Origin: an uncultured Deinococcales bacterium
GTDB taxonomy: Bacteria > Deinococcota > Deinococci > Deinococcales > JAAFIG01
Direction: 5' to 3'
NCBI GenBank assembly: GCA_964247135.1
Contig: CAXTTL010000011.1
Coordinates: 1 to 41,709 of the forward strand
Length of the DNA stretch: 41,709 nucleotides
The notes under the pieces are model-generated. The model was not told the origin of the DNA. It saw nothing but the letters and a program-made list of their open reading frames with translations, and did not search any database. This document shows positions 17,918 through 33,197 of this stretch, piece by piece. Position 1 is the first letter of the stretch, and each line of letters opens with the position of its first letter. A program made the position numbers and the translations under genes.

Positions 17918-18997
17918 TTAACTCATTTCCCGACAAGCACGGTAAATATCTTTCCAACCGTCGCGTTCTTTGACCACCGTCTCGAGGTACTCGAGCCAGA
18001 CCACACGGTCTTGCACTGGGTCTTTGATGACCGCGCCGATCAGCCCTGCGGCAACGTCGGCAGCTCTCATCGTGCCGTCGCCAAAATGCGCGGCGAGCGA
18101 CAAGCCCTGGTTCATGACCGATATGGCTTCGGCGGTGCTCATCGTGCCGGTTGGGGTTTTCAGTTTGGTTTTACCGTCTGTGGTCACACCGTCGCGCAAC
18201 TCTCGGAACACAGTCACCACCCTGCGGATTTCCTCGAGTGCAGGTGGAAGCGCGGGAATCTCGAGGGCGCGACCGAGCGATGCGACCCGGGTTTGGACAA
18301 TGTTGACTTCATCCTCGATGCTGTCTGGCACTGGCAACACCACGGTGTTGAAGCGTCGTTTGAGGGCGCTCGAGAGTTCATTCACGCCCTTGTCGCGGTT
18401 GTTGGCGGTGGCAATCAAATTAAAACCTTTGACCGCCTGCGCCTCGAGTCCCAGTTCTGGAATGGGCAGGGTTTTTTCGGACAGAATGGTGATGAGCGTG
18501 TCTTGCACATCGGCTGGAATGCGGGTCAGTTCCTCGAGTCTGGCGATTTTGCCTTGTCGCATGGCTTTGACGACCGGGCTTTCGACCAGCGCCGCGCTCG
18601 AGGGTCCGTCTTTCAAAAGCAGCGCGTAATTCCAACCGTAACGAATACTTTCTTCGCTGGTGCCCGCCGTGCCTTGCACCAGCATGGTGCTGTCGCCCGA
18701 AATTGCCGCCGAGAGGTGTTCGCTGACCCAACTTTTTGCCGTTCCTGGCACGCCCAAGAGCAGCAATGCGCGGTCGGTTGCCAGGGTTGCCACCGCAATT
18801 TCCATCAGGCGCGAATTGCCAACGTATTTGGGCGTGATCTCCACGCCATTACTGAGCTTCCCGCCCATCAGGTAGGTCAGCACCGCCCACGGCGAAAGTT
18901 TCCACATTGGCGGTTTTTGTTTGCTGTCAAATGTTGCCAGTGCCTCGAGTTCGTGGGCGAATTGATTTTCGGCGTGTTGGCGTTGAACTTCGCTCAT
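17918..18997 (-). CDS. MoxR-like AAA ATPase (YehL-type)
   Basis: GVPGTAKS Walker A, LEELTR Walker B, ATANNRDKGVNELSSALKRRF. Confidence 0.9.
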   Translation of the reverse strand: MSEVQRQHAENQFAHELEALATFDSKQKPPMWKLSPWAVLTYLMGGKLSNGVEITPKYVGNSRLMEIAVATLATDRALLLLGVPGTAKSWVSEHLSAAISGDSTMLVQGTAGTSEESIRYGWNYALLLKDGPSSAALVESPVVKAMRQGKIARLEELTRIPADVQDTLITILSEKTLPIPELGLEAQAVKGFNLIATANNRDKGVNELSSALKRRFNTVVLPVPDSIEDEVNIVQTRVASLGRALEIPALPPALEEIRRVVTVFRELRDGVTTDGKTKLKTPTGTMSTAEAISVMNQGLSLAAHFGDGTMRAADVAAGLIGAVIKDPVQDRVVWLEYLETVVKERDGWKDIYRACREMS

Positions 18998-20550
18998 GGG
19001 TGTTCTCCTTGAAAGGCTCGTTGGAGTTCGATTCGGAAACGTAACGTCTCGAGGGTTGTTTCCAGGTTTTCAAAATGGTTCTTGAGGTTGAGCGTACCAA
19101 GAATCTCGAGTGCCACGTTTGGGTTCATGCTTTGGCTGTAGGTTTTGAGGTGCGCTTGAAGTCGGTAATCGCCAGAATTGTATTTGTTCAGTTCGGCTTC
19201 GGTTTTTTTGTCGCGTTCAAGAAAATATTGTTTGACCCGCTCGCAAATTGCGCGGGTCAGTTCGGCACTCCAATCTTCAAAACCTGTGACCAGAAAGTAC
19301 GGGCTGTCTTCGTGCTCGAGTGGTGGTTGTGGCAGTTTTAATCGCAACAAGATAAATTGCTCGAGTTCGGTCGGGGTCATGACAAAGCTGTAATCGGAAA
19401 GTTGAAATTCGGCTTTGCCACTTTGTTTTAACGCGTCTGCCCAAGCCAGGTTGTAACGATAATGCTTTAAGCTCGAGCGCCAGGCTTCCAAAATCAATTT
19501 TTGGTATTCGTGCTTGTTGGTGGCAGACACCAGTTCTGCGGGTGTGGCATTCAAAGATTTTTCCCAAAACCCGAGCGGTGTGATCTCGAGCATTTGCTTT
19601 AACCAAAATGCTTTTTCACCAATTTTTTGCCAACTCGCTGGTTTGGGTTCAATCCCGTCGCGCTGCATGGCTTTGTCGCAGCTTTCGGGCAATATCACCT
19701 CGAGTTTGGCTGCCGTGCCTTTTTTCAGTCCCAGTAATCCAGCTTTGCCTTCGGGCGTGTATTTCAGCAACGGCGTCACTCGAGCTTTCATCCGTCCCAT
19801 CAACCTCGAGTCTGGAAGTTTGGTCAAAAGTTTGGCAGCGCTTTCGCGCACGTCTTTGCCTTTATCGTCCAGCGCATTCTCGAGAAAATCTTCGTCGGTC
19901 ATTGACAGATTGACCTCGAGCGTTGCAATCAAATCGTTGCGAACTTTGGCAGGTTCTTGCTTCCAGACCGCCTCGAGTTTTTGCAGGGCTTGTTGTGGGT
20001 CAGAACCGCGCAATGTGTACAAAAAATCGCGGCGCTGGGCAGGAAAACCCAATTCCCAAACGCTTTGGTCTAAACTCGAGCCAGAAACCCATGCGCCGTA
20101 CTCGAGGTGTTTGGCGAGCCATAAACCCCTCGCCCCGAGGATTGGCAGGACATGTTCCCGCAAGCTCGAGTCGAAATTGGCTTTTTGAATGACGCTTCCC
20201 AGCAGTTCAAACGGTGCGCGAAGTTTGGTTTTGGCGCAGAGCTTTAGGCATTCGGTCAGTTGTTCGCTTCGAGCATTCAGACACTCGAGCAACAGGCTTT
20301 GTTGTGCTCGAGAAAGTGCTGGAAGTATTTCAGTCTCGGCTTGTTCAAGTGTTGGCTCGAGTGTGCGATTCAGTTGCTGTCCAGCTTTTTTGTATAATGC
20401 CAAAGTCGCGCTGGCGCTGAGCAGCGCCGCCTCTGGATTGCCCGAGTCGATACCGTGTAAGAATTCCAATTCGAACAAATTTGGTTTTTGTCTTTCCGTG
20501 CCGAGCAAGGCGCTCGAAATCAGGCTTTGCCAGTTGGTTGCCAAGCTCAT
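18994..20550 (-). CDS. DUF5691-like alpha-helical protein
   Basis: ALLGTER, LGARGLWLA and DEDFLENALDDKGKDVR motifs; ATGA overlaps on both sides. Confidence 0.75.
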   Translation of the reverse strand: MSLATNWQSLISSALLGTERQKPNLFELEFLHGIDSGNPEAALLSASATLALYKKAGQQLNRTLEPTLEQAETEILPALSRAQQSLLLECLNARSEQLTECLKLCAKTKLRAPFELLGSVIQKANFDSSLREHVLPILGARGLWLAKHLEYGAWVSGSSLDQSVWELGFPAQRRDFLYTLRGSDPQQALQKLEAVWKQEPAKVRNDLIATLEVNLSMTDEDFLENALDDKGKDVRESAAKLLTKLPDSRLMGRMKARVTPLLKYTPEGKAGLLGLKKGTAAKLEVILPESCDKAMQRDGIEPKPASWQKIGEKAFWLKQMLEITPLGFWEKSLNATPAELVSATNKHEYQKLILEAWRSSLKHYRYNLAWADALKQSGKAEFQLSDYSFVMTPTELEQFILLRLKLPQPPLEHEDSPYFLVTGFEDWSAELTRAICERVKQYFLERDKKTEAELNKYNSGDYRLQAHLKTYSQSMNPNVALEILGTLNLKNHFENLETTLETLRFRIELQRAFQGEHP

Positions 20551-21896
20551 GCGTCCTCCGAACTGTGGGTTTGCGCAAAAATTCCGTCGCTCGAGTGGAT
20601 CATGAGTGGCAAGAGGGTTTGACCGTCGAATTCGCCAAAAACCGTGATCGGGTGCCCGCCAGAAACCGCCAGCAAGTTTGGCATCTGGTCGTGATTCGGA
20701 TGCAACGCCAAAACCTGGTCGCTCGAGTCACGCAACAGCCAGGTTTCAACAATTTTTTGCGGGGTCAAACCCGAGACGGTGATCGGAATTCGTTCCAGCC
20801 ACGGTTGAGCCGCAACTGACTTTGCGTATTTCTCGAGCATGGCTTCAAAATTCGGCAAGCCATCAAGTGTTTGGGTGACACGCCCCAGGTCACGTTCGGC
20901 TTTTTTGATGACGGCTCGGGTTGGATGGTTGCTCGGGAAAAACACCAATTCTCCAAGCAAAATACTGGTCGGCTCGAGAATTCGTTCAAAAGGCAGATTG
21001 CCGTGCGCAAAATCGAGCAGCATGGCGTACTGTCCAGATTTTTCGCCGTGCAGCCACGCCCGTCTCGAGCGTAAACGATCCTGGCGTTCTTCAACAATTC
21101 CAAGCACCTGCCAGTGGTCTTGAACCCCAGCTTGCTCGAGCAATTCGTCTTGGCTTTGGGTAAAACCGATGGCGCTGCGCACATCGGCTTGCACGGGTTC
21201 TGGCAATGATTCAAGCCTCGAGTACGCCTCGCAGAGCAAGTGAATTTTTGCCAGTCGCTCGAGCAGTCGTTCTGCCCAGCCTTCGCCGCCGCCGGCAATG
21301 CCCGCCAGTTCGCGCACCAGTCGCGCCGCGCCCGGAGCTTGGGCATCGATCAACCTTGCAGCCACGCCATCCCAAAACGAGTAGGGTTTATTTTGCACGC
21401 TCGAGAGTCCAGTCCGTATCAAGTCACGCAACCACACCGAGAGTTCCTCGAGTCCGGCGCTAACTTTTTTGCCCCTGGCGGCAATGCGTTTCTCACCAGC
21501 TTTCGGGTCGGCGGCAACCTCAGCTTTTTTGATTTCATTGGCGTCGCTGCGTTTTGTCCGCCCCTCGAGCCATTCTGTGACCCAGGCAGGTGGGGTGTCC
21601 TGGGTAAAAGCCCCAGCGTCACTTTGCAGCAGCAAAAACAGCCCCAAGCCGTGCTTGCACGGAAATTTTCGGCTCGGGCAGGAACACTTAAAAGCTGGCT
21701 CGAGCGGATCAATTCTGGTTTGATACGGGTTTTTACCGCTGCCCTGGCACTCGCCCCAAATGGCAGTGTCGGTTTTGCCCAAGCCCACCCAGTTTTTTTT
21801 GGCAGCCAAACCACGCCCTGCACTGGCAGAACTCGAGTCTGGAGCGAGAGCCAAGATGCGTTCGGGAGTCCAAGATTCGCTCATGATGGTTGTCAT
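20547..21896 (-). CDS. SWIM zinc-finger protein
   Basis: WGECQGSGKNPY and CSCPSRKFPCKH motifs; start at 21896 or 21884. Confidence 0.9.
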   Translation of the reverse strand: MTTIMSESWTPERILALAPDSSSASAGRGLAAKKNWVGLGKTDTAIWGECQGSGKNPYQTRIDPLEPAFKCSCPSRKFPCKHGLGLFLLLQSDAGAFTQDTPPAWVTEWLEGRTKRSDANEIKKAEVAADPKAGEKRIAARGKKVSAGLEELSVWLRDLIRTGLSSVQNKPYSFWDGVAARLIDAQAPGAARLVRELAGIAGGGEGWAERLLERLAKIHLLCEAYSRLESLPEPVQADVRSAIGFTQSQDELLEQAGVQDHWQVLGIVEERQDRLRSRRAWLHGEKSGQYAMLLDFAHGNLPFERILEPTSILLGELVFFPSNHPTRAVIKKAERDLGRVTQTLDGLPNFEAMLEKYAKSVAAQPWLERIPITVSGLTPQKIVETWLLRDSSDQVLALHPNHDQMPNLLAVSGGHPITVFGEFDGQTLLPLMIHSSDGIFAQTHSSEDA

Positions 21897-22013
21897 TCTA
21901 TTTTAGCTTTTTTGTCGTGAATGGCGTATGAGGCTCGAGGATTCAGTTTTGGCTGCAAAATTGTTCACTTTTGACTGGGATACTTTACAGCACGTCGCCA
22001 AACGACAAATGCT

Positions 22014-22047
22014 TGTAAGGATTCTGTAAGTACCCTTGATCTACACT
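22014..22047 (+). promoter_or_regulatory. Putative promoter of the peptide gene: direct repeat TGTAAG-N5-TGTAAG plus -10 TACACT
   Basis: Repeats at 22014 and 22025 (11-bp period) in place of a -35; TACACT at 22042-22047. Confidence 0.5.
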
Positions 22048-22079
22048 ACCTCCAGTTACCAATTTAGGGGGAACCAAAG

Positions 22080-22259
22080 ATGCTTAAAAAATTACTGATC
22101 GGATTGTTTTTACTGGGAATGTTGTGTGGTGCGGGTTCAATTAGCGCTGGTCCTCTTGGGGCACGTGCAGCAAATCCATCTGAAGACGGTGGTTCAGCCT
22201 CGATGACGGCGGATAGTCCAAAAGGCAAAACCATTTTGTGCAGTGGCGGAAACTGCTAA
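22080..22259 (+). CDS. 59-aa secreted peptide precursor, putative signalling peptide
   Basis: Hand translation: MLKKLLIGLFLLGMLCGAGSISAGPLGARAANPSEDGGSASMTADSPKGKTILCSGGNC*. AGGGGGA RBS, Sec-type signal peptide and own terminator. Shorter than any ORF in the track. Confidence 0.85.
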   Translation: MLKKLLIGLFLLGMLCGAGSISAGPLGARAANPSEDGGSASMTADSPKGKTILCSGGNC

Positions 22260-22278
22260 AAAAATCATAAATTTGATG

Positions 22279-22314
22279 AACCAGGCTTTGGTTTGACTGA
22301 AGTCTGGTTTTTTT
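22279..22314 (+). terminator. Intrinsic terminator of the peptide gene
   Basis: AACCAGGCTTTGGT-ttg-ACTGAAGTCTGGTT, a 14-bp stem with G-U pairs on the + strand, followed by a T-run. Confidence 0.85.
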
Positions 22315-22480
22315 GTGGTTCGATTTGCCAGATTTAAAAGTTCTTGATTTTTGACGGTCTTCATGATTTACAACCGAGTTTTGGGTTAAGTTGGTTTCAA
22401 TGTTCCAGGTAGAAGATGCTAGGAAAACTTCCACATAAAAATCTACTTTTGGGGAAATATATGAAGGTCAAGTTTTTATC

Positions 22481-24172
22481 ATGCAAAAAGTAATCAGTGA
22501 AACTCCAGCGACGCTAGAGCCGTATACCAAGTTAATTGAAGCTCTAACTTCGTCCAACATGATCGAATCAGACCCTCTTAAGGCACTCGATTCGATCTTG
22601 GTGGCTCGAGAATTGGCGTTTGAGTTAAATGATGTAGAGTCGGTCGCTAAATTTTATCAATTTGAAGGCAACTGTCTTTTTTATCTATCGCGTTTTCCAG
22701 AGGCACTTAAAGCAACTTACATTGCTCTGGATGTGTTTACCAAATCCGAGAATTATCCTGTGATTATTGCCTGTCAAATTGAAATCGGGCTTTGTTACAT
22801 GTATCTTGGAGATTTTTCAGATTGCATCGAGTGGCTTGAATTGGCTTTAACAAATTCCAAAACCCATAACAGACCCTTTGGCATCTATACCAGTTTAAGC
22901 AATATGCGTGATGCCGAGATAAAATTGGGAAATCTGGAGCAGGCACTTAAATATAGTGAAGATAGTCTCTCTCTAGCAAAAGAACTAAAAAGTGGTTATC
23001 GAATTGCCAATGAACAGTTAGAACTTGGCAATACACATGTCAAATTGGGGCAAAGAGATTTTCATATTGATCCAAAAGAATCTTTAAAACGATTTGAAGT
23101 AGGATACCAGCTATTTTGTCAAGCTCATGAAACACTAGAAAAAGACAAAATCTATGGTTTTGAGGTGGCTATTTTAAATGCAAAAACCACTGTATTGGCT
23201 GAATTGGGTCAAATTGAACAAGCATTCAGCACCAGTGAATTGGCTTTATTAGAAGCAAAGAATAACGATGATCCCTCACTTAGAGCAGATTGTGAAAAAA
23301 TCAGGGGTTGGCTCTACTTCAAAACAAATCAAAACACCAAAGCACTACATCACTATGAAAAAGCGCTCGAAATTTACGTTTCGATTGGTAAAAAAGATGA
23401 AGTTGCCAGCATTCACCGTGAATTGGCAAAAGTTTGCAAAGCAAATCATCAGTATATCGAAGCTTTAGAGCACCTCGAGAAATTTTATGCGTTGGACGCT
23501 CAACTTCGCTCCGATGCCGCCGAACGTCGGGCGCAGGCTTTGGCGGCAAAACTTGACCTCGAGAAAGCCCGTCACGATGCCGAAATGCACCGTGTGCGCA
23601 GTGAAGAATTGGCGGCGCTCAATTTGCAATTGCAAAATCAGGCGGTGCTGCTCGAAAAACTTGCCAGGGAAGATGAGTTGACGGGTTTGGCGAACCGGCG
23701 CAAGCTCGAGGAATTTGCGATTCAGGCTTTCGCCGAATCCAGGGTGAACCATTCGACGCTTTGCATGGCAATCGCCGATTTGGATTTTTTTAAGGGCGTC
23801 AATGATCGTTTTGGTCATGCCACGGGTGACAATGTCATGCGGGTTTTGGGTGCGATTTTGCGGGAGCATTGCCCAGAGGGCGCTTTGGCGGCGCGGTTTG
23901 GTGGCGAGGAGTTTGTGCTGATCTTGCCGTACACCAAAGCGGAGGATGCGTTTGTGTTGTGCGAGAATATTCGGATCAGTTTGCAAAATTACAACTGGAA
24001 ACAGCTTCATCCGAATTTGGCGGTGACCATCAGTTTGGGTTTGAGTGACTCTCATGAGGCTTCGACCCATGAACGTTTGCTGTCGCTGGCTGATTTGCGG
24101 CTTTACGAAGCCAAAAATGCGGGTCGCAATTGTACGCGACCTCAACTGTTGCAAACTTCAAATCAAGCCTAA
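22481..24172 (+). CDS. TPR-repeat diguanylate cyclase (GGDEF)
   Basis: N-terminal TPR array, coiled coil, DELTGLANRR, DLDFFKGVNDRFGHATGD, ARFGGEEF and AKNAGRN motifs; no TM segment or signal peptide. Confidence 0.93.
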   Translation: MQKVISETPATLEPYTKLIEALTSSNMIESDPLKALDSILVARELAFELNDVESVAKFYQFEGNCLFYLSRFPEALKATYIALDVFTKSENYPVIIACQIEIGLCYMYLGDFSDCIEWLELALTNSKTHNRPFGIYTSLSNMRDAEIKLGNLEQALKYSEDSLSLAKELKSGYRIANEQLELGNTHVKLGQRDFHIDPKESLKRFEVGYQLFCQAHETLEKDKIYGFEVAILNAKTTVLAELGQIEQAFSTSELALLEAKNNDDPSLRADCEKIRGWLYFKTNQNTKALHHYEKALEIYVSIGKKDEVASIHRELAKVCKANHQYIEALEHLEKFYALDAQLRSDAAERRAQALAAKLDLEKARHDAEMHRVRSEELAALNLQLQNQAVLLEKLAREDELTGLANRRKLEEFAIQAFAESRVNHSTLCMAIADLDFFKGVNDRFGHATGDNVMRVLGAILREHCPEGALAARFGGEEFVLILPYTKAEDAFVLCENIRISLQNYNWKQLHPNLAVTISLGLSDSHEASTHERLLSLADLRLYEAKNAGRNCTRPQLLQTSNQA

Positions 24173-24231: not shown

Positions 24232-25287
24232 ATGAGCTTAACGCCAAATGAACTTGGTTTTTCAATGCCCGCCGAATGGTTGCCCCATGCGAGTGTCTGG
24301 ATGGCTTTTCCTGCCGATAATATTGAATGGCTTGGGCATCTCGAGGAGGTGCGGCAAGAGTTCGCGGCGTTTATCAAGACACTCTCGAGCTTTGAGTTGG
24401 TGCATTTGATCGTGCGCGATAACGAAACTGAAACCGATGCTCGAGCCAGGTTAACGGGGGCAAACGTGGTGTTTCATCGTCTTAATCACAATGATGTTTG
24501 GTTGCGGGATTGTGCCCCACTTTTTGTCACCAAAGGTTCCGAGGTCGCGGCTGTGGACTGGGAATTCAACGGTTGGGGCATGAAGTTTGATAGCGAGCTT
24601 GACAACAAGATTCCAGATTTTGTGGCAGGGTATCTCGAGATGCCCGTGTTTAAGACGGGCATCGTCATGGAGGGCGGCAGCCTCGAGCTGAACGGCGCGG
24701 GTGTGGCGCTGACCACGCGCCAATGTCTGCACTCCAAATTTCGCAACCCAAATTTGACTGAATCCGACCTCGAGAAAGCCTTAAACGATTACTTGGGCAT
24801 CAAAAAAGTTTTGTGGCTCGAGAATGGTTTGGAGGGCGATCACACCGACGGGCACATTGACACGATCACACGGTTTATCGGTGAAAACACGATCATCACC
24901 AGCGTTTGTGAAGACCCGTCCGACGCGAATTTTCAGACCATGCGGGACAACCTCGAGCGACTGAAAACCTTTAGGAATTTGGACGGTAACCCATTCAGGA
25001 TTCTCGAGTTGCCGCTGCCCAAAAACCGCCTCGAGCATGTCGGCGAGATCGCGCAAAGCGAGGGTTTGCTGGGTCAACGTTTACCGCCGACCTATGCCAA
25101 TTTTTACATCGCCAACGGCGCGGTCATTGTGCCCACCTATGGCGATCCGAACGACCAGCGTGCGCTCGAGATTCTGAGTCCGTTGTTTCCAGATCGGCAA
25201 GTGATTGGTTTAAGCTCCAGGGCGATCATCAATGGCGGGGGCAGTTTTCACTGCGTCACGCAACAACAACCCCTCGCTAAGGCTTAA
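24232..25287 (+). CDS. Agmatine/peptidylarginine deiminase family protein
   Basis: MPAEW, DVWLRD, EGGS, DHTDGHID and GGGSFHCVTQQQP motifs. Confidence 0.93.
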   Translation: MSLTPNELGFSMPAEWLPHASVWMAFPADNIEWLGHLEEVRQEFAAFIKTLSSFELVHLIVRDNETETDARARLTGANVVFHRLNHNDVWLRDCAPLFVTKGSEVAAVDWEFNGWGMKFDSELDNKIPDFVAGYLEMPVFKTGIVMEGGSLELNGAGVALTTRQCLHSKFRNPNLTESDLEKALNDYLGIKKVLWLENGLEGDHTDGHIDTITRFIGENTIITSVCEDPSDANFQTMRDNLERLKTFRNLDGNPFRILELPLPKNRLEHVGEIAQSEGLLGQRLPPTYANFYIANGAVIVPTYGDPNDQRALEILSPLFPDRQVIGLSSRAIINGGGSFHCVTQQQPLAKA

Positions 25288-26381
25288 AGCTTCAGGCGGT
25301 TCAAAAGCACCGATTTTGCGCCGTAACGTTTTTGCATTTCGATCAAATCCTCGGGTTGTTCGTCGCCGAAAGCCAGTTTGTTGGAGTGGTGCAGGCTGGT
25401 GAAAATATCGACAATTTTGGCGTCAAAATGCGTGCCGGCATTTTCGCGCAGGAACAAAAGCGCCTCGCGGGTGGACATCGGTTCGCGGTAAGGGCGTTTG
25501 CTGGTTAAAGCCTCAAAGACATCCAAAACCGTGAGGACTCGAGCCTCGACGGGGATGGTTTCGCCCTTGAGCTGATCTGGATAACCGCGTCCGTCCCAAC
25601 GTTCGTGGTGGCTGCGCACGGCTCTGGCAATTGGGGCAAAATCTGGGCTGGCATTTAAAAGCACCCGTTCGCCAATGATCGGGTGGCGTTGCATGTCCAG
25701 GCGCTCGGTTGGGGTTAAGGGTCCTGGTTTGTTGATGATTTGCTCACTGATTCCAATTTTCCCAAGGTCGTGCAGCACGCCGCTCCAGTACAAAGTCTCG
25801 AGGTTGTCCTGATTGATGCCAAGTTCTCGTCCGATGACCACCGCGTTGTATGCCACGCGTTCGGAATGGTCGGCGGTTTTGTCGTCGCGCTCTTGAATCA
25901 GTGACACCAGGGCGTGAAGGGTGCGTCCGTAGGTGACGGATAATTCTTGGGCGACACTCTCGATCATGCGCATCCGTTGGCGCAACAAGCTCGAGAGCAC
26001 GCCCGAAGAGCCGCCGATCAGGCAAAAAAATCCGGTGCGCACCATCCAGGAGAGCGTCGGTTGGGCAAGATTTTTTTCAACCTCGAGCGGCATGAACGGT
26101 CCGAGCAGGACACCGCCGATGATGGCGACGATCACCCCGCCGACTGAACCGAACAACAAACCGCCCAACATGACGGGCAGGTACATAAATTGCAGGTAAA
26201 CGTATTTTGTGCCGCCGGTGCTGTAAACGATTGCAGCAATGCCAAACTCGAGCAAAACCACGATCAATAAAATAATTCCAGAATCGCGCCGCCGCGAGAA
26301 CAAGGCGTCGGTGAGCCACAACGCAACCTTGGAGGTTTCCAGGGCGGTGGATTTGTCGCTCGAGATGGTGGTGTTGGTCAT
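25284..26381 (-). CDS. Membrane-anchored HD-GYP c-di-GMP phosphodiesterase
   Basis: About 4 N-terminal TM helices; HSERV, LHDLGKIG, HHERWDGRGYP and ALTSKRPYR motifs. Confidence 0.92.
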   Translation of the reverse strand: MTNTTISSDKSTALETSKVALWLTDALFSRRRDSGIILLIVVLLEFGIAAIVYSTGGTKYVYLQFMYLPVMLGGLLFGSVGGVIVAIIGGVLLGPFMPLEVEKNLAQPTLSWMVRTGFFCLIGGSSGVLSSLLRQRMRMIESVAQELSVTYGRTLHALVSLIQERDDKTADHSERVAYNAVVIGRELGINQDNLETLYWSGVLHDLGKIGISEQIINKPGPLTPTERLDMQRHPIIGERVLLNASPDFAPIARAVRSHHERWDGRGYPDQLKGETIPVEARVLTVLDVFEALTSKRPYREPMSTREALLFLRENAGTHFDAKIVDIFTSLHHSNKLAFGDEQPEDLIEMQKRYGAKSVLLNRLKL

Positions 26382-29850: not shown

Positions 29851-30041
29851 ATCAGTCATAGTTTACCCGAGTTTTCTGATAATTTCTTCAGCCTAAATGC
29901 CTGACACAAACCATTAAATCATGAATTTTTAAAAGCAACGGTGCTGTGGACTACCTCAAGAAAAACGCGTCCATGACGGCTGATTCGAGCTTTACAAGCC
30001 GTGTCTCATGTTTTGGCGGTATTCTGAAAAGCCAGTCTTTC

Positions 30042-33000
30042 ATGAGCTTACCCTCGACTCAAATTCAGTCAATTCTCGCTCGGCGCTTTGGTGCAGTGTT
30101 GGCGAAGCGTGCCGGTTTGGCGCTCGCCGTCACCGGCGAGGCTGGCATCGGGAAAAGTTTTGGGGTCAATCGGGCACTCGAAGAAATTTCGGTTCAATTC
30201 CTTCAATTTCATGCCAATTCCAACCTCGAGCAGTGGCTGAAGACCATTCCAAAAGCAAAAAAACTTCCTGACTGGGCACTCAACATTCTTGAAAAGACGG
30301 ACGCCGAATTGCCTTGCAGCGAGGCTTTGATCAATGCCCTGATTGCCAACATGACGTTGCTTGCGCCGTTTGTCCTTTATCTCGAGGATGTCCATGAAGC
30401 CAAACCGGAGCGCCTGGCATTGATCGAAAAACTGGGGACAGCCGTGACCGCCATCAAGGGCGTGGCGTTGGTCGTGACCAGCCGTCGGGTCGTCCCAGCC
30501 GGATTCTCGGGTTTTCAACTGCTGCCACTCGAGTCAACCCAGTCCAGAGCACTGTTGGAACAAGCCTGCGGCGCGGTTTTGCCAAGCGAAAGTCTGGATT
30601 ATATTTTTGCCAGGGCGCAGGGCAACCCACTGTTCACGCTCGAGTTTTTAAAGTATTTAACGCGCCACGGATGTTTGTGGTTTGATGGCACACTCTGGCA
30701 TTGGCGGGCACCCGCAGGTGATGTTGTCCCAGTGACCGTCGAAGCCTTGATCGGGCAAATGATTGAGGGTCTACAGCATTCACCCGAGGTCAGGACCCTG
30801 CTCGAGGCGCGAGCGGTTTTGCCCATGCAAATGCTCGAGCCTGAAAAATCCTGGTTTGCGTTGAGCAAACTGAGCCGCCAAACGTTTGCCAGCACGCTCG
30901 AGCTGCTGGAAAACGAAGGCTTGTTGCGCGGTGGTGATTTTGCCCATCCGTTGATCCGTGAGGTGGTGCAAAATGGTATTTCTGGCATTCGCCGCGCCGA
31001 ACTGGCAAGAATGGTGCTGCAACACTTGGATGAATCGCAGCTTCAAGTCGCTGCCGGTTTTGTCGGTGATGCAGGCTTGCCCGTGGCGGAACAACTCGAG
31101 GTGCTCGAAAAAGCCATCGCCCAAGCCAAAGCCCAAAACAATCCCAGACTCGAGGCGGCTTGGTTGCTGCAATCGCTCGAATGCGCCATGCCTCAAGACC
31201 GAGCCGATTTGGCGGTTCGGGCGGCAAGGTTACTCAAAAAATTTGATTTGCCCCAAGCCATTCGGGTTGCCTCCATCGCCCTCAATTCAAAGCCAAATGA
31301 TGCTGAGGCGGTCTACCTGCTGGCAACCCTCAAAGCCACAGCGGGCAAATTGCTCGAGGCTGAGGACTTGATCGCCCAACTGCCAATCCCAACTCGAGCA
31401 TCCGAGTTTGGACTCAAACAGCATTTGATCGTTCGCAGCAACGGCGATGACCAGGCTGGAGCCTATTCGATCTGGCAGCAATTGCAGGCTGGCGGCTACC
31501 TGATCGATGCCGAAATTGCCAACCAGGCGGTACAGACCGTGTACCTGCACGGTGATATTGGGCAAGCACTCGGGTTGGCAGATTTTGCTTTTGAAAAGCT
31601 CCAGTTGCCAACGCACAACCGAGCCATGATGCTGATCGATTTTTATGCTCGCTATTATTTTGAACAGGGCGATTACGACCAAGCCGAGCAACGCATCTCA
31701 ATGGCAATCGAATTGCTCAGAACCCAGGATGATCCGCGCATTCTGGCGCTGGCAATTGGCAACCGTGGCATCGTCCGAGGTTCGCTCAACCGCGAATTGG
31801 AAGCCATCGAAGATTTCAAAGAGGCTGCCACCACGTTTGCGTCAATCGGCTTGACCCTCAAGTTCGCCGAGTGTTTAAACCAGTTGGGTACGACTTATTC
31901 CAACCTCGGTGATTTTGCCCAAGCCGAACGGGTGCTGCTCGAGGCGCGAGATATTTTGCGCCCATCCGAAATTGTTTACAGTTTGGCGAAATGTGAGAGT
32001 GCACTCGCCATGCTCTACGCCAATTGGTTGCCGCCCTACGGCGCGAGCCTCTGCCTCAAGCACGCCCGAGCCGCCCTAAATTACGCCAGAAACTTGAAAA
32101 ACCCAGTGGTGTTCGCCCATTATTTAGCCACCGCCGCCATTGCTGAAGCCGCCCACGGCGACCCGCTAAAAGCCTTGGACCATGCCCAAGAATTAATCGG
32201 TATCGCCCAAAACCTCGAGAATCCTCGGGTGCAGAAAATGGCGCAGCACGCCTATGGCATGGCTTTAAGTGCCAATGGTAAAACCGAACAAGGTTTGAGC
32301 GCCCTGAGAAAAGTGCTTGAAATCGAGCGTGAAAGCCAAACTTTTGAACTGAGCGACACTATTTTGCTCGAGATTGACCGCATCAGCCAAAATTTCCAGT
32401 CGGCACAAACCAGAATCGAGCACTACCGAAAAAACAACCAACGAATGCTCTTGACGCTTGCCGAACGATACTTTCCCAGCTTGGTTCAAGATCAAACCAA
32501 GACCGAGCTTCAAATGCCGCACACGCCAGCTTTGGGATTGTTGGTGCTCGGACCTTTTGGCTTAACCAAGCATGGTCAGACCGTGCCCTACCGTGGTCGC
32601 AAACGTGCCGAGTTCCTGCTGTACCTGCTCGAGACTCGAATCGCTGGACGCACTGAAGCCAGCACCGACGAATTGATCGAAGTGCTCTATCCAGACCTGC
32701 CTGACACGGATGCCAAAGCCTCGCTCAAGCAACTGGTGTACTTGGTGCGGCAACAATTTGGCAGCAACGTGATTCAAAGCACACCGAGCGGTTACGCCCT
32801 GGAAGATGCGGGAAGCGACATCGAAGCATTTTTTGCAAATGGTGACGCGAGCCTTTGGCGCGGCAAGTATTTGGCTGGCATCGGGGACGGTTGGATTCCG
32901 AGCGTCACGGATGCCGTGGTTCACGCCCTGCAAGCCAAAGTCGAAATGCTCTCAACCACCGACGTCAAAGAGGCGGGGCGCCTGGGTAAAATGTTGCTCG

Positions 33001-33197
33001 AGATGCAAACCTACGACCTGGACGCGCTCGAGTTGACGCTTCGGGCACTGATTGCCACCAAGGAGAACCCCAAGCGTTTGTACCTCGAGATGATTGAGCG
33101 TTTTCTTGAGGTCGGAGAAGAATTACCCGATACCATTGCGGCGTTTTTGGCAGGGCGCGAAGGCAAGCTCGAGACAAGGCTGAGACAGAAAACTTAA
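30042..33197 (+). CDS. STAND-type AAA ATPase with TPR sensor and C-terminal SARP-like wHTH/BTAD regulator
   Basis: GEAGIGKS, LEDVH, GNPLF and FAHPLIRE motifs; TPRs; C-terminal LLVLGPF...LLYLL...LYPD...LKQLVYLVR...GYAL and LWRGKYL. Start uncertain. Confidence 0.85.
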   Translation: MSLPSTQIQSILARRFGAVLAKRAGLALAVTGEAGIGKSFGVNRALEEISVQFLQFHANSNLEQWLKTIPKAKKLPDWALNILEKTDAELPCSEALINALIANMTLLAPFVLYLEDVHEAKPERLALIEKLGTAVTAIKGVALVVTSRRVVPAGFSGFQLLPLESTQSRALLEQACGAVLPSESLDYIFARAQGNPLFTLEFLKYLTRHGCLWFDGTLWHWRAPAGDVVPVTVEALIGQMIEGLQHSPEVRTLLEARAVLPMQMLEPEKSWFALSKLSRQTFASTLELLENEGLLRGGDFAHPLIREVVQNGISGIRRAELARMVLQHLDESQLQVAAGFVGDAGLPVAEQLEVLEKAIAQAKAQNNPRLEAAWLLQSLECAMPQDRADLAVRAARLLKKFDLPQAIRVASIALNSKPNDAEAVYLLATLKATAGKLLEAEDLIAQLPIPTRASEFGLKQHLIVRSNGDDQAGAYSIWQQLQAGGYLIDAEIANQAVQTVYLHGDIGQALGLADFAFEKLQLPTHNRAMMLIDFYARYYFEQGDYDQAEQRISMAIELLRTQDDPRILALAIGNRGIVRGSLNRELEAIEDFKEAATTFASIGLTLKFAECLNQLGTTYSNLGDFAQAERVLLEARDILRPSEIVYSLAKCESALAMLYANWLPPYGASLCLKHARAALNYARNLKNPVVFAHYLATAAIAEAAHGDPLKALDHAQELIGIAQNLENPRVQKMAQHAYGMALSANGKTEQGLSALRKVLEIERESQTFELSDTILLEIDRISQNFQSAQTRIEHYRKNNQRMLLTLAERYFPSLVQDQTKTELQMPHTPALGLLVLGPFGLTKHGQTVPYRGRKRAEFLLYLLETRIAGRTEASTDELIEVLYPDLPDTDAKASLKQLVYLVRQQFGSNVIQSTPSGYALEDAGSDIEAFFANGDASLWRGKYLAGIGDGWIPSVTDAVVHALQAKVEMLSTTDVKEAGRLGKMLLEMQTYDLDALELTLRALIATKENPKRLYLEMIERFLEVGEELPDTIAAFLAGREGKLETRLRQKT

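Follow-up and report, generated by a model that had tools for sequence, protein, structure and literature searches.

Quorum sensing systems of the RRNPP type pair a small exported propeptide with a cytoplasmic tetratricopeptide repeat (TPR) receptor, as in Rap-Phr, NprR-NprX, PlcR-PapR, PrgX and AimR-AimP, and peptide-TPR signaling is regarded as a trait of Bacillota and of mobile elements. The receptors, whose hosts are Bacillota or their mobile elements, act through a helix-turn-helix (HTH) domain or a Rap-type protein-binding surface, and the known outputs are control of transcription or of phosphatases. In Rap-Phr, NprR-NprX, PlcR-PapR and AimR-AimP, the propeptide gene is not known to be located upstream of the receptor gene. 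A second point of reference is RpfR, a protein with a PAS-GGDEF-EAL domain make-up. It is described in PMC6361424 as the receptor of the fatty-acid quorum signal DSF (diffusible signal factor). Here, we describe a two-gene locus (positions 22014-24172, forward strand) in a 41,709-nt stretch of DNA, contig CAXTTL010000011.1 of an uncultured Deinococcales bacterium, the whole of which is referred to as the window. The locus consists of a 59-codon gene for a predicted secreted peptide and, downstream of it and in the same orientation, a gene for a predicted cytoplasmic TPR-coiled coil-GGDEF diguanylate cyclase. It is hypothesized that the two form an RRNPP-like propeptide/receptor pair with synthesis of cyclic di-GMP (c-di-GMP) as its output, a reading to which we give an even chance.

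The peptide open reading frame (ORF) spans 22080-22259 on the plus strand, starts with ATG, encodes 59 amino acids (aa) and ends with a TAA stop codon. The original prediction, made from the letters of the sequence, had proposed this ORF together with a ribosome-binding site (RBS), and both hold up: GGGGG (22067..22071, plus strand) lies 8 nt ahead of the ATG, and the codons of the ORF change as those of a gene would. For this coding test the window was compared with five other genomes of its own genus (g1, with six genomes including the window's), in which the cyclase has 73-81% identity to that of the window. Within codons 1-24, 13 codons are variable across the six g1 genomes and 11 of these 13 vary in a purely synonymous manner, with pairwise nonsynonymous divergence (dN) in the signal region of 0-0.047 versus synonymous divergence (dS) of 0.27-1.05. 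Because codon changes in the signal region are mostly synonymous, we rejected the possibility that the ORF is not a gene, and the pattern shows it to be a real gene under selection. The gene is single-copy in the window's genome, and its homologs in public data are annotated as ‘hypothetical protein’. Of 13 peptide genes inspected, 12 have a G-rich RBS 5′ of the start codon at a spacing of 7-9 nt, which reads GGGGG in all but one of them and GGAGGG in that one; none was seen at the peptide gene of genome G008. Farther upstream, a block at 22022..22048 (plus strand) is nearly invariant in the six g1 loci while the sequence flanking it is variable, which makes it a possible promoter region. A promoter scan found no sigma-70 consensus within this block and no consensus promoter ahead of either the peptide gene or the cyclase gene.

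The anatomy of the peptide was deduced from a set of 32 aligned family members of 49-60 aa. In the window's peptide, the putative signal peptide (residues 1-23; 22080..22148, plus strand) begins with MLKK, which places two Lys near the N-terminus, continues with a hydrophobic core whose best 10-residue Kyte-Doolittle mean is 2.74, and contains small-x-small sites, one of which is ISA|G after residue 23. On a rule-of-thumb basis, the n-, h- and c-region features recur in 32/32 peptides, with two to three Lys or Arg within the first 8 residues, a core of 2.55-3.30 and small-x-small sites at residues 17-25. By the same rule of thumb, the signal peptide of the original prediction is a good candidate; of the two possible cleavage sites that it offered, ARA| is less likely than ISA| because it falls in the non-conserved part. 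A variable pro-region follows (residues 24-50; 22149..22229, plus strand), which differs in length and sequence between species and ends with PKGK in the window, where it is rich in Gly, Ser, Pro and Asp; in one genus of the family this spacer is Pro-rich. A Lys or Arg is located 6-9 residues from the C-terminus in 31 of the 32 peptides. Beyond it lies the putative mature tail, TILCSGGNC in the window (residues 51-59 plus TAA; 22230..22259, plus strand). The tails comprise 6-9 residues ending in C-x3/4-C, and the stop codon comes directly after the second Cys in 32/32. Both Cys are invariant throughout the set (spacing C-x3-C in 25 peptides and C-x4-C in seven), and yet the 32 peptides carry 27 distinct tails. 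Within g1, the ratio of nonsynonymous to synonymous change (pN/pS) is 0.16-0.94 for pro-region plus tail versus 0-0.10 for the signal part. We infer from this layout that the C-terminal tail is the mature product. Pheromone precursors are known for such a pattern, in which the export signal is fixed, the spacer is free to change and a short C-terminal piece diversifies around a few fixed residues, and the RRNPP propeptides likewise have a conserved signal peptide and a variable C-terminal part.

Database searches with the peptide returned no Pfam family, a best NCBIfam E-value of 0.11, and a best ESM Atlas score of 0.80, which is under the level of a meaningful match. AgrD pheromones have a recognition tail that follows the ring, and their genes neighbor one for an AgrB-type processing peptidase; the present peptides differ in that translation stops at the second Cys and no AgrB-type gene is a neighbor. 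A five-residue thiolactone ring like that of the autoinducing peptides (AIPs), formed via C-x3-C and the terminal carboxyl, was considered and set aside, there being no C-terminal leaving group and no AgrB-like gene.

The signal peptide is more constant than its export seems to need. Residues 1-23 (22080-22148) are identical in 18 of the 22 g1-type peptides, and the remaining four each carry a single change, even though dS reaches ~1; Sec export alone usually imposes far less constraint on signal peptides. This invariance could reflect a dedicated partner or a second function. It would also be explained if the active signal were cut from the signal peptide and not from the C-terminal tail, as happens with the enterococcal sex pheromones, which are released from the signal peptides of lipoproteins and have PrgX, of the RRNPP type, as their receptor. 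We hold this form of peptide signaling to be highly improbable here. No lipobox was found, in which respect the family differs from the enterococcal lipoprotein-derived pheromones, and the signal-peptide Cys is preceded by Leu (in g1) or Phe (in the genus designated g5) and is missing in some genera (the signal peptides of G011, G008 and G009 have none). Furthermore, the tail Cys pair and the Lys/Arg are conserved across five genera and the sequence of the signal peptide is not, and the complex prediction described below scored residues 24-59, not the signal peptide. A lipoprotein reading of the signal-peptide Cys was itself ruled out, since the lipobox residue (Gly, Ala or Ser before Cys) is absent.

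Homologous small ORFs were sought beside the cyclase orthologs of one uncultured Deinococcales family, represented by 19 species-level genomes. In 15 of the 15 genomes that carry the ortholog, which belong to five genera, such an ORF lies co-oriented and directly 5′ of it. The 15 are the six g1 genomes; G008, G009, G011, G012, G014, G016 and G018; G010, in which a contig end falls inside the peptide gene with SISCGRQGC-stop still readable; and G017, in which a contig end falls inside the cyclase gene. The gap between the genes is 35-221 nt over these loci, with 221 bp in the window. The original prediction had named the absence of small secreted ORFs beside homologous TPR-GGDEF genes as a finding that would refute it, and such ORFs were found beside every ortholog; its assignment of the host to Deinococcota is also confirmed, in that all 12 named related loci come from Deinococcales or Deinococcota metagenome-assembled genomes. 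Genomes G006, G007, G013 and G015 (completeness 74-94%) are without the peptide and without an equally strong cyclase match. Their matches have E-values of 1e-48 to 1e-63 versus 2e-72 or lower for the peptide-linked complete genes, and those of G006 and G015 group among paralogs in a tree. In that tree a single branch, recovered in 82% of bootstrap trees and with support of 80/18, separates the 14 peptide-linked cyclases from the rest.

The association is also narrow. Flanking genes differ between genera. When eight loci plus the window were compared, with a match required in two or more other loci, no ORF of at least 100 aa apart from the cyclase was common to loci of different genera; the peptide gene, found separately, adjoins it. 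The window's genome has six other TPR-GGDEF paralogs, and none is preceded by a comparable ORF; the search flagged one ORF of 77 residues upstream of a paralog, but it is without the Cys tail. A peptide profile gave full-length matches in 14/19 family genomes and, in 344 other Deinococcales genomes, no more than nine matches, all weak and partial (E 0.001-0.01) and most of them within long ORFs. The profile search of 1.84 billion proteins returned 11 hits, consisting of eight small family peptides and three long repetitive proteins, and a metagenome scan for more pairs yielded four weak partial relatives of 23-36% identity, none with a peptide. The homologs of the peptide from protein libraries, 29 and four extra, come without genomic context. 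In the genomes compared, the linkage of the peptide to one cyclase ortholog group is strict and specific.

Conserved adjacency fits co-regulation equally well, and the peptide may be co-expressed with the cyclase without being its ligand. It would then act outside the cytoplasm as an antimicrobial or bacteriocin-like peptide, as a metal-binding peptide by virtue of its Cys-x3/4-Cys, or as a matrix or surface factor; the shared transcription unit would represent one common response, and the TPR domain would bind another protein or ligand. C-terminal Cys loops are found in antimicrobial peptides. No importer is linked to the pair, and the support from complex prediction is weak, both of which count in favor of such a role. 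We nevertheless consider it unlikely, given that the peptide is never found alone, being single-copy and missing in 4/4 family genomes that lack the ortholog. It is not accompanied by genes for immunity, export or maturation, the Pfam and NCBIfam searches matched it to no family of bacteriocins or otherwise, and within the cyclase it is the sensor that diverges along with the peptide while the output part is conserved.

The cyclase gene (22481..24172, plus strand) encodes a protein of 563 aa. The original prediction had described it as a co-oriented TPR, coiled-coil and intact GGEEF protein 221 bp downstream of the small ORF, and Pfam matches and an AlphaFold2 model agree with that description. 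Built on 14 orthologs of 549-567 aa, the model has a mean predicted local distance difference test score (pLDDT) of 86 and contains TPR helix pairs at residues 32-321, a long helix at residues 325-397 and a GGDEF fold at residues 403-550. The protein was also said to be without transmembrane segments, which is upheld because the mean hydropathy of 19-residue windows never exceeds 1.47 over the 14 orthologs. The TPR superhelix (residues 32-321; 22574..23443, plus strand) matches Pfam TPR_12 with an E-value of 3.8e-19, as well as TPR_2 and TPR_1, and is presumed to be the peptide-binding sensor. It is joined by the modeled coiled-coil linker (residues 325-397; 23453..23671, plus strand) to the GGDEF domain (residues 397-550; 23669..24130, plus strand), which matches PF00990 with an E-value of 2.1e-34 and 119 bits versus a cut-off of 23.8. 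The GGEEF motif (G474, G475, E476, E477 and F478; 23900-23914) is invariant in 14/14 orthologs, and so are D433, D435, N441, D450, K545 and R549, which we take to be among the metal- and GTP-binding residues of the GGDEF domain. The catalytic motif is thus intact, and the protein is predicted to be a diguanylate cyclase. The RxxD inhibitory site, which is common in GGDEF cyclases without defining them and stands five residues before GGEEF (23870-23914 in the window, residues 464-478), is replaced by PEGA or a similar sequence in 6/6 g1 orthologs, and RxxD is present in seven of the eight orthologs of other genera; product inhibition may have been lost in g1.

In coiled-coil-linked cyclases, the register of the helix sets the productive GGDEF dimer. 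WspR, DgcB, DgcR and the bacteriophytochrome cyclases resemble the present protein in the long helix that precedes their GGDEF domain (3i5c, 6ttr, 6zxb and 6et7; fold E-values of 1e-11 to 4e-10). They differ from it in their receiver, phytochrome or other sensors, and have neither a TPR array nor a neighboring propeptide.

Within g1, divergence in the protein is greatest in the TPR sensor, and the coil and GGDEF domain are conserved. Identity is 0.76-0.80 over the TPR array, with 0.58-0.64 at residues 181-225, and 0.63 over the first 60 residues of the protein; the corresponding values are 0.87 for the GGDEF domain and 0.96 for the coiled coil, the most conserved part. In the Bacillus comQXP and staphylococcal agrBDC cassettes, which are hypervariable, the precursor of the pheromone co-diverges with the sensor part of its receptor and the output is conserved. 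The pair described here is similar to those systems in that the tail and the TPR part diverge and the coil and GGDEF domain do not. They differ from it in that comQXP and agrBDC have histidine kinases of the membrane as receptors and depend on dedicated enzymes for peptide modification, whereas no modifying enzyme is linked to the present pair.

A composition island (21934-23474) extends over the peptide gene and the spacer and into the cyclase gene as far as the part that encodes the TPR domain. Its GC content is 0.40 versus 0.53 for the genome. GC content at third codon positions is 0.31-0.33 in the island versus 0.56-0.59 in the part that encodes the coil and GGDEF domain, with the shift near residue 340. 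The palindrome CTCGAG, which is hyper-abundant in this genome, occurs at 298 sites in the whole window versus 7.95 expected from shuffles, or approximately one per 140 bp, and only once within 21934-23474, where ~11 would be expected from the window density. The island comprises two of the window's three largest CTCGAG gaps, side by side, and among genome windows of the island's length 117/22683 have one CTCGAG or fewer. Depletion is milder in the five other g1 genomes, with 4-7 CTCGAG per 1400 bp versus ~12 expected from the flanks. The island fits, without proving, a sensor-plus-ligand cassette that, like comQXP or agr, has had its own history of exchange or rapid turnover.

Between the two genes lies a hairpin plus T-run (22278..22317, plus strand), a predicted intrinsic terminator or attenuator in which 15 pairs at 22278-22310 are followed by the T-run. 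The hairpin scan alone was not above chance, with two sites found versus 2.8 expected in shuffles. The hairpin is kept in all six g1 loci, with a compensatory change from GGCTTTG/CAAAGCC to GGCTCTG/CAGAGCC, and a stable intergenic hairpin (dG of −13.5 kcal/mol or lower) occurs in 11/13 loci, most of them with a T-run after it. The claim that the peptide ORF has its own terminator is supported by this conservation. In g5, the intergenic gap is 50-70 nt and the cyclase start codon stands directly after the T-run, which points to a cyclase probably transcribed by read-through from the promoter of the peptide gene. With such read-through, peptide transcripts would be plentiful and those of the receptor few. 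The ribosome site of the cyclase gene is a poor one. A search of the whole window against Rfam found no family, hence no c-di-GMP riboswitch or known leader.

This arrangement also suits a cis-acting leader, in which translation or co-translational export of the small ORF would gate read-through of the hairpin or translation of the cyclase, and cyclase expression would report the secretion or translation status of the cell. SecM-secA, MifM-yidC2 and classic attenuation are models for such a device. In favor of the idea, the ORF precedes the cyclase gene in the same orientation, the two genes are separated by a hairpin with a T-run in most loci, the cyclase start in g5 leaves no space for a separate promoter, and the ribosome site of the cyclase gene is poor. 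We judge it quite improbable, however. Ribosome-tunnel arrest motifs are conserved, and SecM, MifM and VemP have a conserved C-terminal arrest motif and a downstream secretion or insertion component. In the family described here, the C-terminal part is instead the most variable, with pN/pS reaching 0.94 in g1, and the gene downstream is that of a cyclase and not of a secretion component. The features that are invariant, namely the Cys pair and the Lys/Arg, are typical of a processed, folded product. The g1 hairpin begins at least 19 nt past the stop codon, and no alternative anti-terminator pairing was seen.

In order to compare the propeptide/receptor reading with described RRNPP systems, we used the five-criterion signature listed in the main text of PMC10075063, which includes a propeptide of 10-100 aa and a receptor of 250-500 aa. 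The pair agrees with four of the five if Sec export, for which the paper uses SignalP and which is judged here by rule of thumb, is counted: the propeptides, at 49-60 aa, are within the range in 32/32 cases, the receptor carries TPRs, and the genes are direct neighbors in 15/15 loci. It departs from the signature in receptor length, which is 549-567 aa here, the excess being the coiled coil and GGDEF domain. As a whole, the original prediction of a peptide-to-c-di-GMP system is partly supported, through linkage, architecture and host, and its mechanism is a proposal. The pair further differs from RRNPP systems in its host, which belongs to Deinococcales and not to Bacillota, in an output that consists of a coiled-coil-joined GGDEF domain and not of an HTH domain or Rap-type surface, in the invariant Cys-x3/4-Cys ring of the tail, and in the hairpin that separates the genes. 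Because phylum, output domain, receptor length, gene order and Cys ring differ, we did not file the pair as a member of RRNPP.

The survey tool of PMC10075063, as its main text presents it, applies the receptor length limit and is restricted to Firmicutes and viruses, so that a pair of this kind would be missed by design. The same main text contains no mention of GGDEF, diguanylate, c-di-GMP or Deinococc. RpfR is similar to the present cyclase in being a cytoplasmic receptor of a cell-cell signal that carries c-di-GMP turnover domains and works without a kinase cascade; it differs in sensing, by PAS, a fatty-acid signal that is made by enzymes and is not ribosomal, and in having no TPR. No published peptide-TPR-diguanylate cyclase system was found in the literature searched, in agreement with the original prediction, which knew of no characterized system with this architecture.

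The closest matches of the TPR domain lie elsewhere. Its best sequence matches are LGN/Pins (GPSM2) proteins with E-values of 2.6e-37 to 1e-31, next to 3.7e-15 for NprR and 1.9e-10 to 2.3e-7 for Rap proteins, and LGN/Pins also gave the best fold matches (Foldseek E-value of 8.5e-13, TM-score up to 0.77 normalized to target). The eight-repeat TPR superhelices of LGN/Pins hold an extended peptide in their inner groove, as seen in structures with Inscuteable, NuMA, Frmpd and afadin peptides (3sf4, 4a1s, 3ro2, 4wnd and 5a6c). These proteins differ from the cyclase in being eukaryotic scaffolds without enzymatic output, and the resemblance concerns the type of repeat and the shape and extends to neither function nor descent. 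The TPR domain may share ancestry with RRNPP receptors, but LGN/Pins scores better.

The module that we infer, including the export, cleavage site, disulfide, re-import, binding and direction of effect on the cyclase, would work as follows. The small gene would give rise to a propeptide that leaves the cytoplasm via Sec and is made up of signal peptide, variable spacer and C-terminal tail, and cleavage would occur after the signal peptide and then, outside the cytoplasm, probably near the conserved Lys/Arg. This would release a peptide of 6-9 residues in which the two Cys could close a disulfide ring of 5-6 residues. The mature peptide would build up extracellularly and then be re-imported, with Opp/Dpp-type binding proteins as candidates, in order to bind the concave groove of the TPR superhelix of the adjacent cytoplasmic enzyme. 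Binding would be relayed via the long coiled-coil helix to the GGDEF dimer and would alter c-di-GMP synthesis. The intergenic hairpin would hold peptide transcripts abundant and receptor transcripts scarce. The genome is permissive for uptake, with 26 SBP_bac_5 matches, and for disulfide formation, with four DSBA-family matches.

Binding was explored by complex prediction with TPR residues 1-345 and peptide residues 24-59, both supplied as alignments, along with three controls. The median score was 0.36 (runs of 0.43, 0.30 and 0.36) versus 0.03 for the best control, and the runs agreed in at least 71% of contacts with a partner pLDDT of at least 48. The mark set for such predictions was reached by 58/80 solved complexes and 2/110 mismatched pairs; at scores of 0.60 or lower, it was reached by 7/80 solved complexes and by both mismatches. 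The TPR-peptide complex envisaged in the original prediction scored above its controls, in the unreliable band of 0.60 or lower. We treat the result as weak support, a small shift favoring binding that falls short of evidence for it.

Several observations weigh against a propeptide/receptor pair. The complex score falls in a band where passes are more often wrong unless the guess was likely beforehand, and the predicted fold of the peptide itself is uncertain in the complex model. A disulfide ring would be expected to be reduced in the cytoplasm, where the receptor sits. Deinococcus and Thermus have an outer envelope layer, and if such a layer is present in these hosts, as expected, the peptide would have to cross it twice. 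At the loci compared, the pair has no linked gene for a transporter, a protease or a modifying enzyme, no RRNPP receptor is as similar in sequence to the TPR domain as LGN/Pins, and the propeptide gene is upstream of its receptor gene. The module does not account for a conservation of the signal peptide that extends so far beyond the need for export. Lastly, the g1 tail classes track the species tree, and 15 pairs gave no co-variation of peptide and receptor beyond ancestry, in a set that has no power for such a test because the pairs follow the species tree.

Among the neighboring genes of the window, an operon for a MoxR-type AAA_5 ATPase, a DUF5691 protein and a SWIM zinc-finger protein (17918-21896, minus strand), with overlapping stop and start codons, is directly upstream and divergent. 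An agmatine deiminase gene on the plus strand is directly downstream of the cyclase gene. The second gene 3′ of the cyclase gene encodes an HD-GYP (HD_5) protein with a hydrophobic N-terminal half (25284-26381, minus strand), which by its domain is likely a c-di-GMP phosphodiesterase. In G006, which belongs to another genus, a paralogous TPR-GGDEF sequence is fused to an HD-GYP-like N-terminus in a 731-aa frame. The window also contains a gene for a 1083-aa AAA_16 plus TPR protein, a STAND-like regulator (29946-33197, plus strand).

Two other loci of the window's genome contain comparable small ORFs. At L081 (G000:C13:2164-4110), a 61-aa ORF with a hydrophobic N-terminus ends with KPCASNLC-stop and lies 79 nt upstream of a co-oriented 560-aa protein in which Pfam found TPRs only, with a BTAD-AAA-TPR regulator nearby. 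This ORF is one of eight that passed a genome-wide filter, and the locus is possibly another peptide-TPR pair. At L082 (G000:C358:2701-2838), a 45-aa ORF with a signal-like start ends with FQCSADC-stop near an AAA_22/AAA_16 ATPase gene on a short contig.

In its fullest form, our proposal is that the pair represents the first peptide quorum sensing in Deinococcota and the first ribosomal pheromone to be read directly by a diguanylate cyclase, with a family of disulfide-ringed ‘pherotype’ peptides of 6-9 residues, each matched to the TPR domain of its own cyclase, in a cassette of peptide gene and sensor that is exchanged or diversified as a unit and with a fixed coiled-coil and GGDEF output. 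We advance this form tentatively and regard it as rather doubtful. If true, the logic of peptide-TPR signaling would extend from Bacillota to a phylum with a different envelope, and a peptide passed between cells would reach in one step the second messenger on which decisions about biofilm and motility depend. Given the limits of the survey tool, related modules that have other outputs may be under-counted. With two genes and a ligand of 6-9 residues, the idea is testable in vitro even though the hosts are uncultured, and the module could act as a compact, peptide-controlled c-di-GMP switch.

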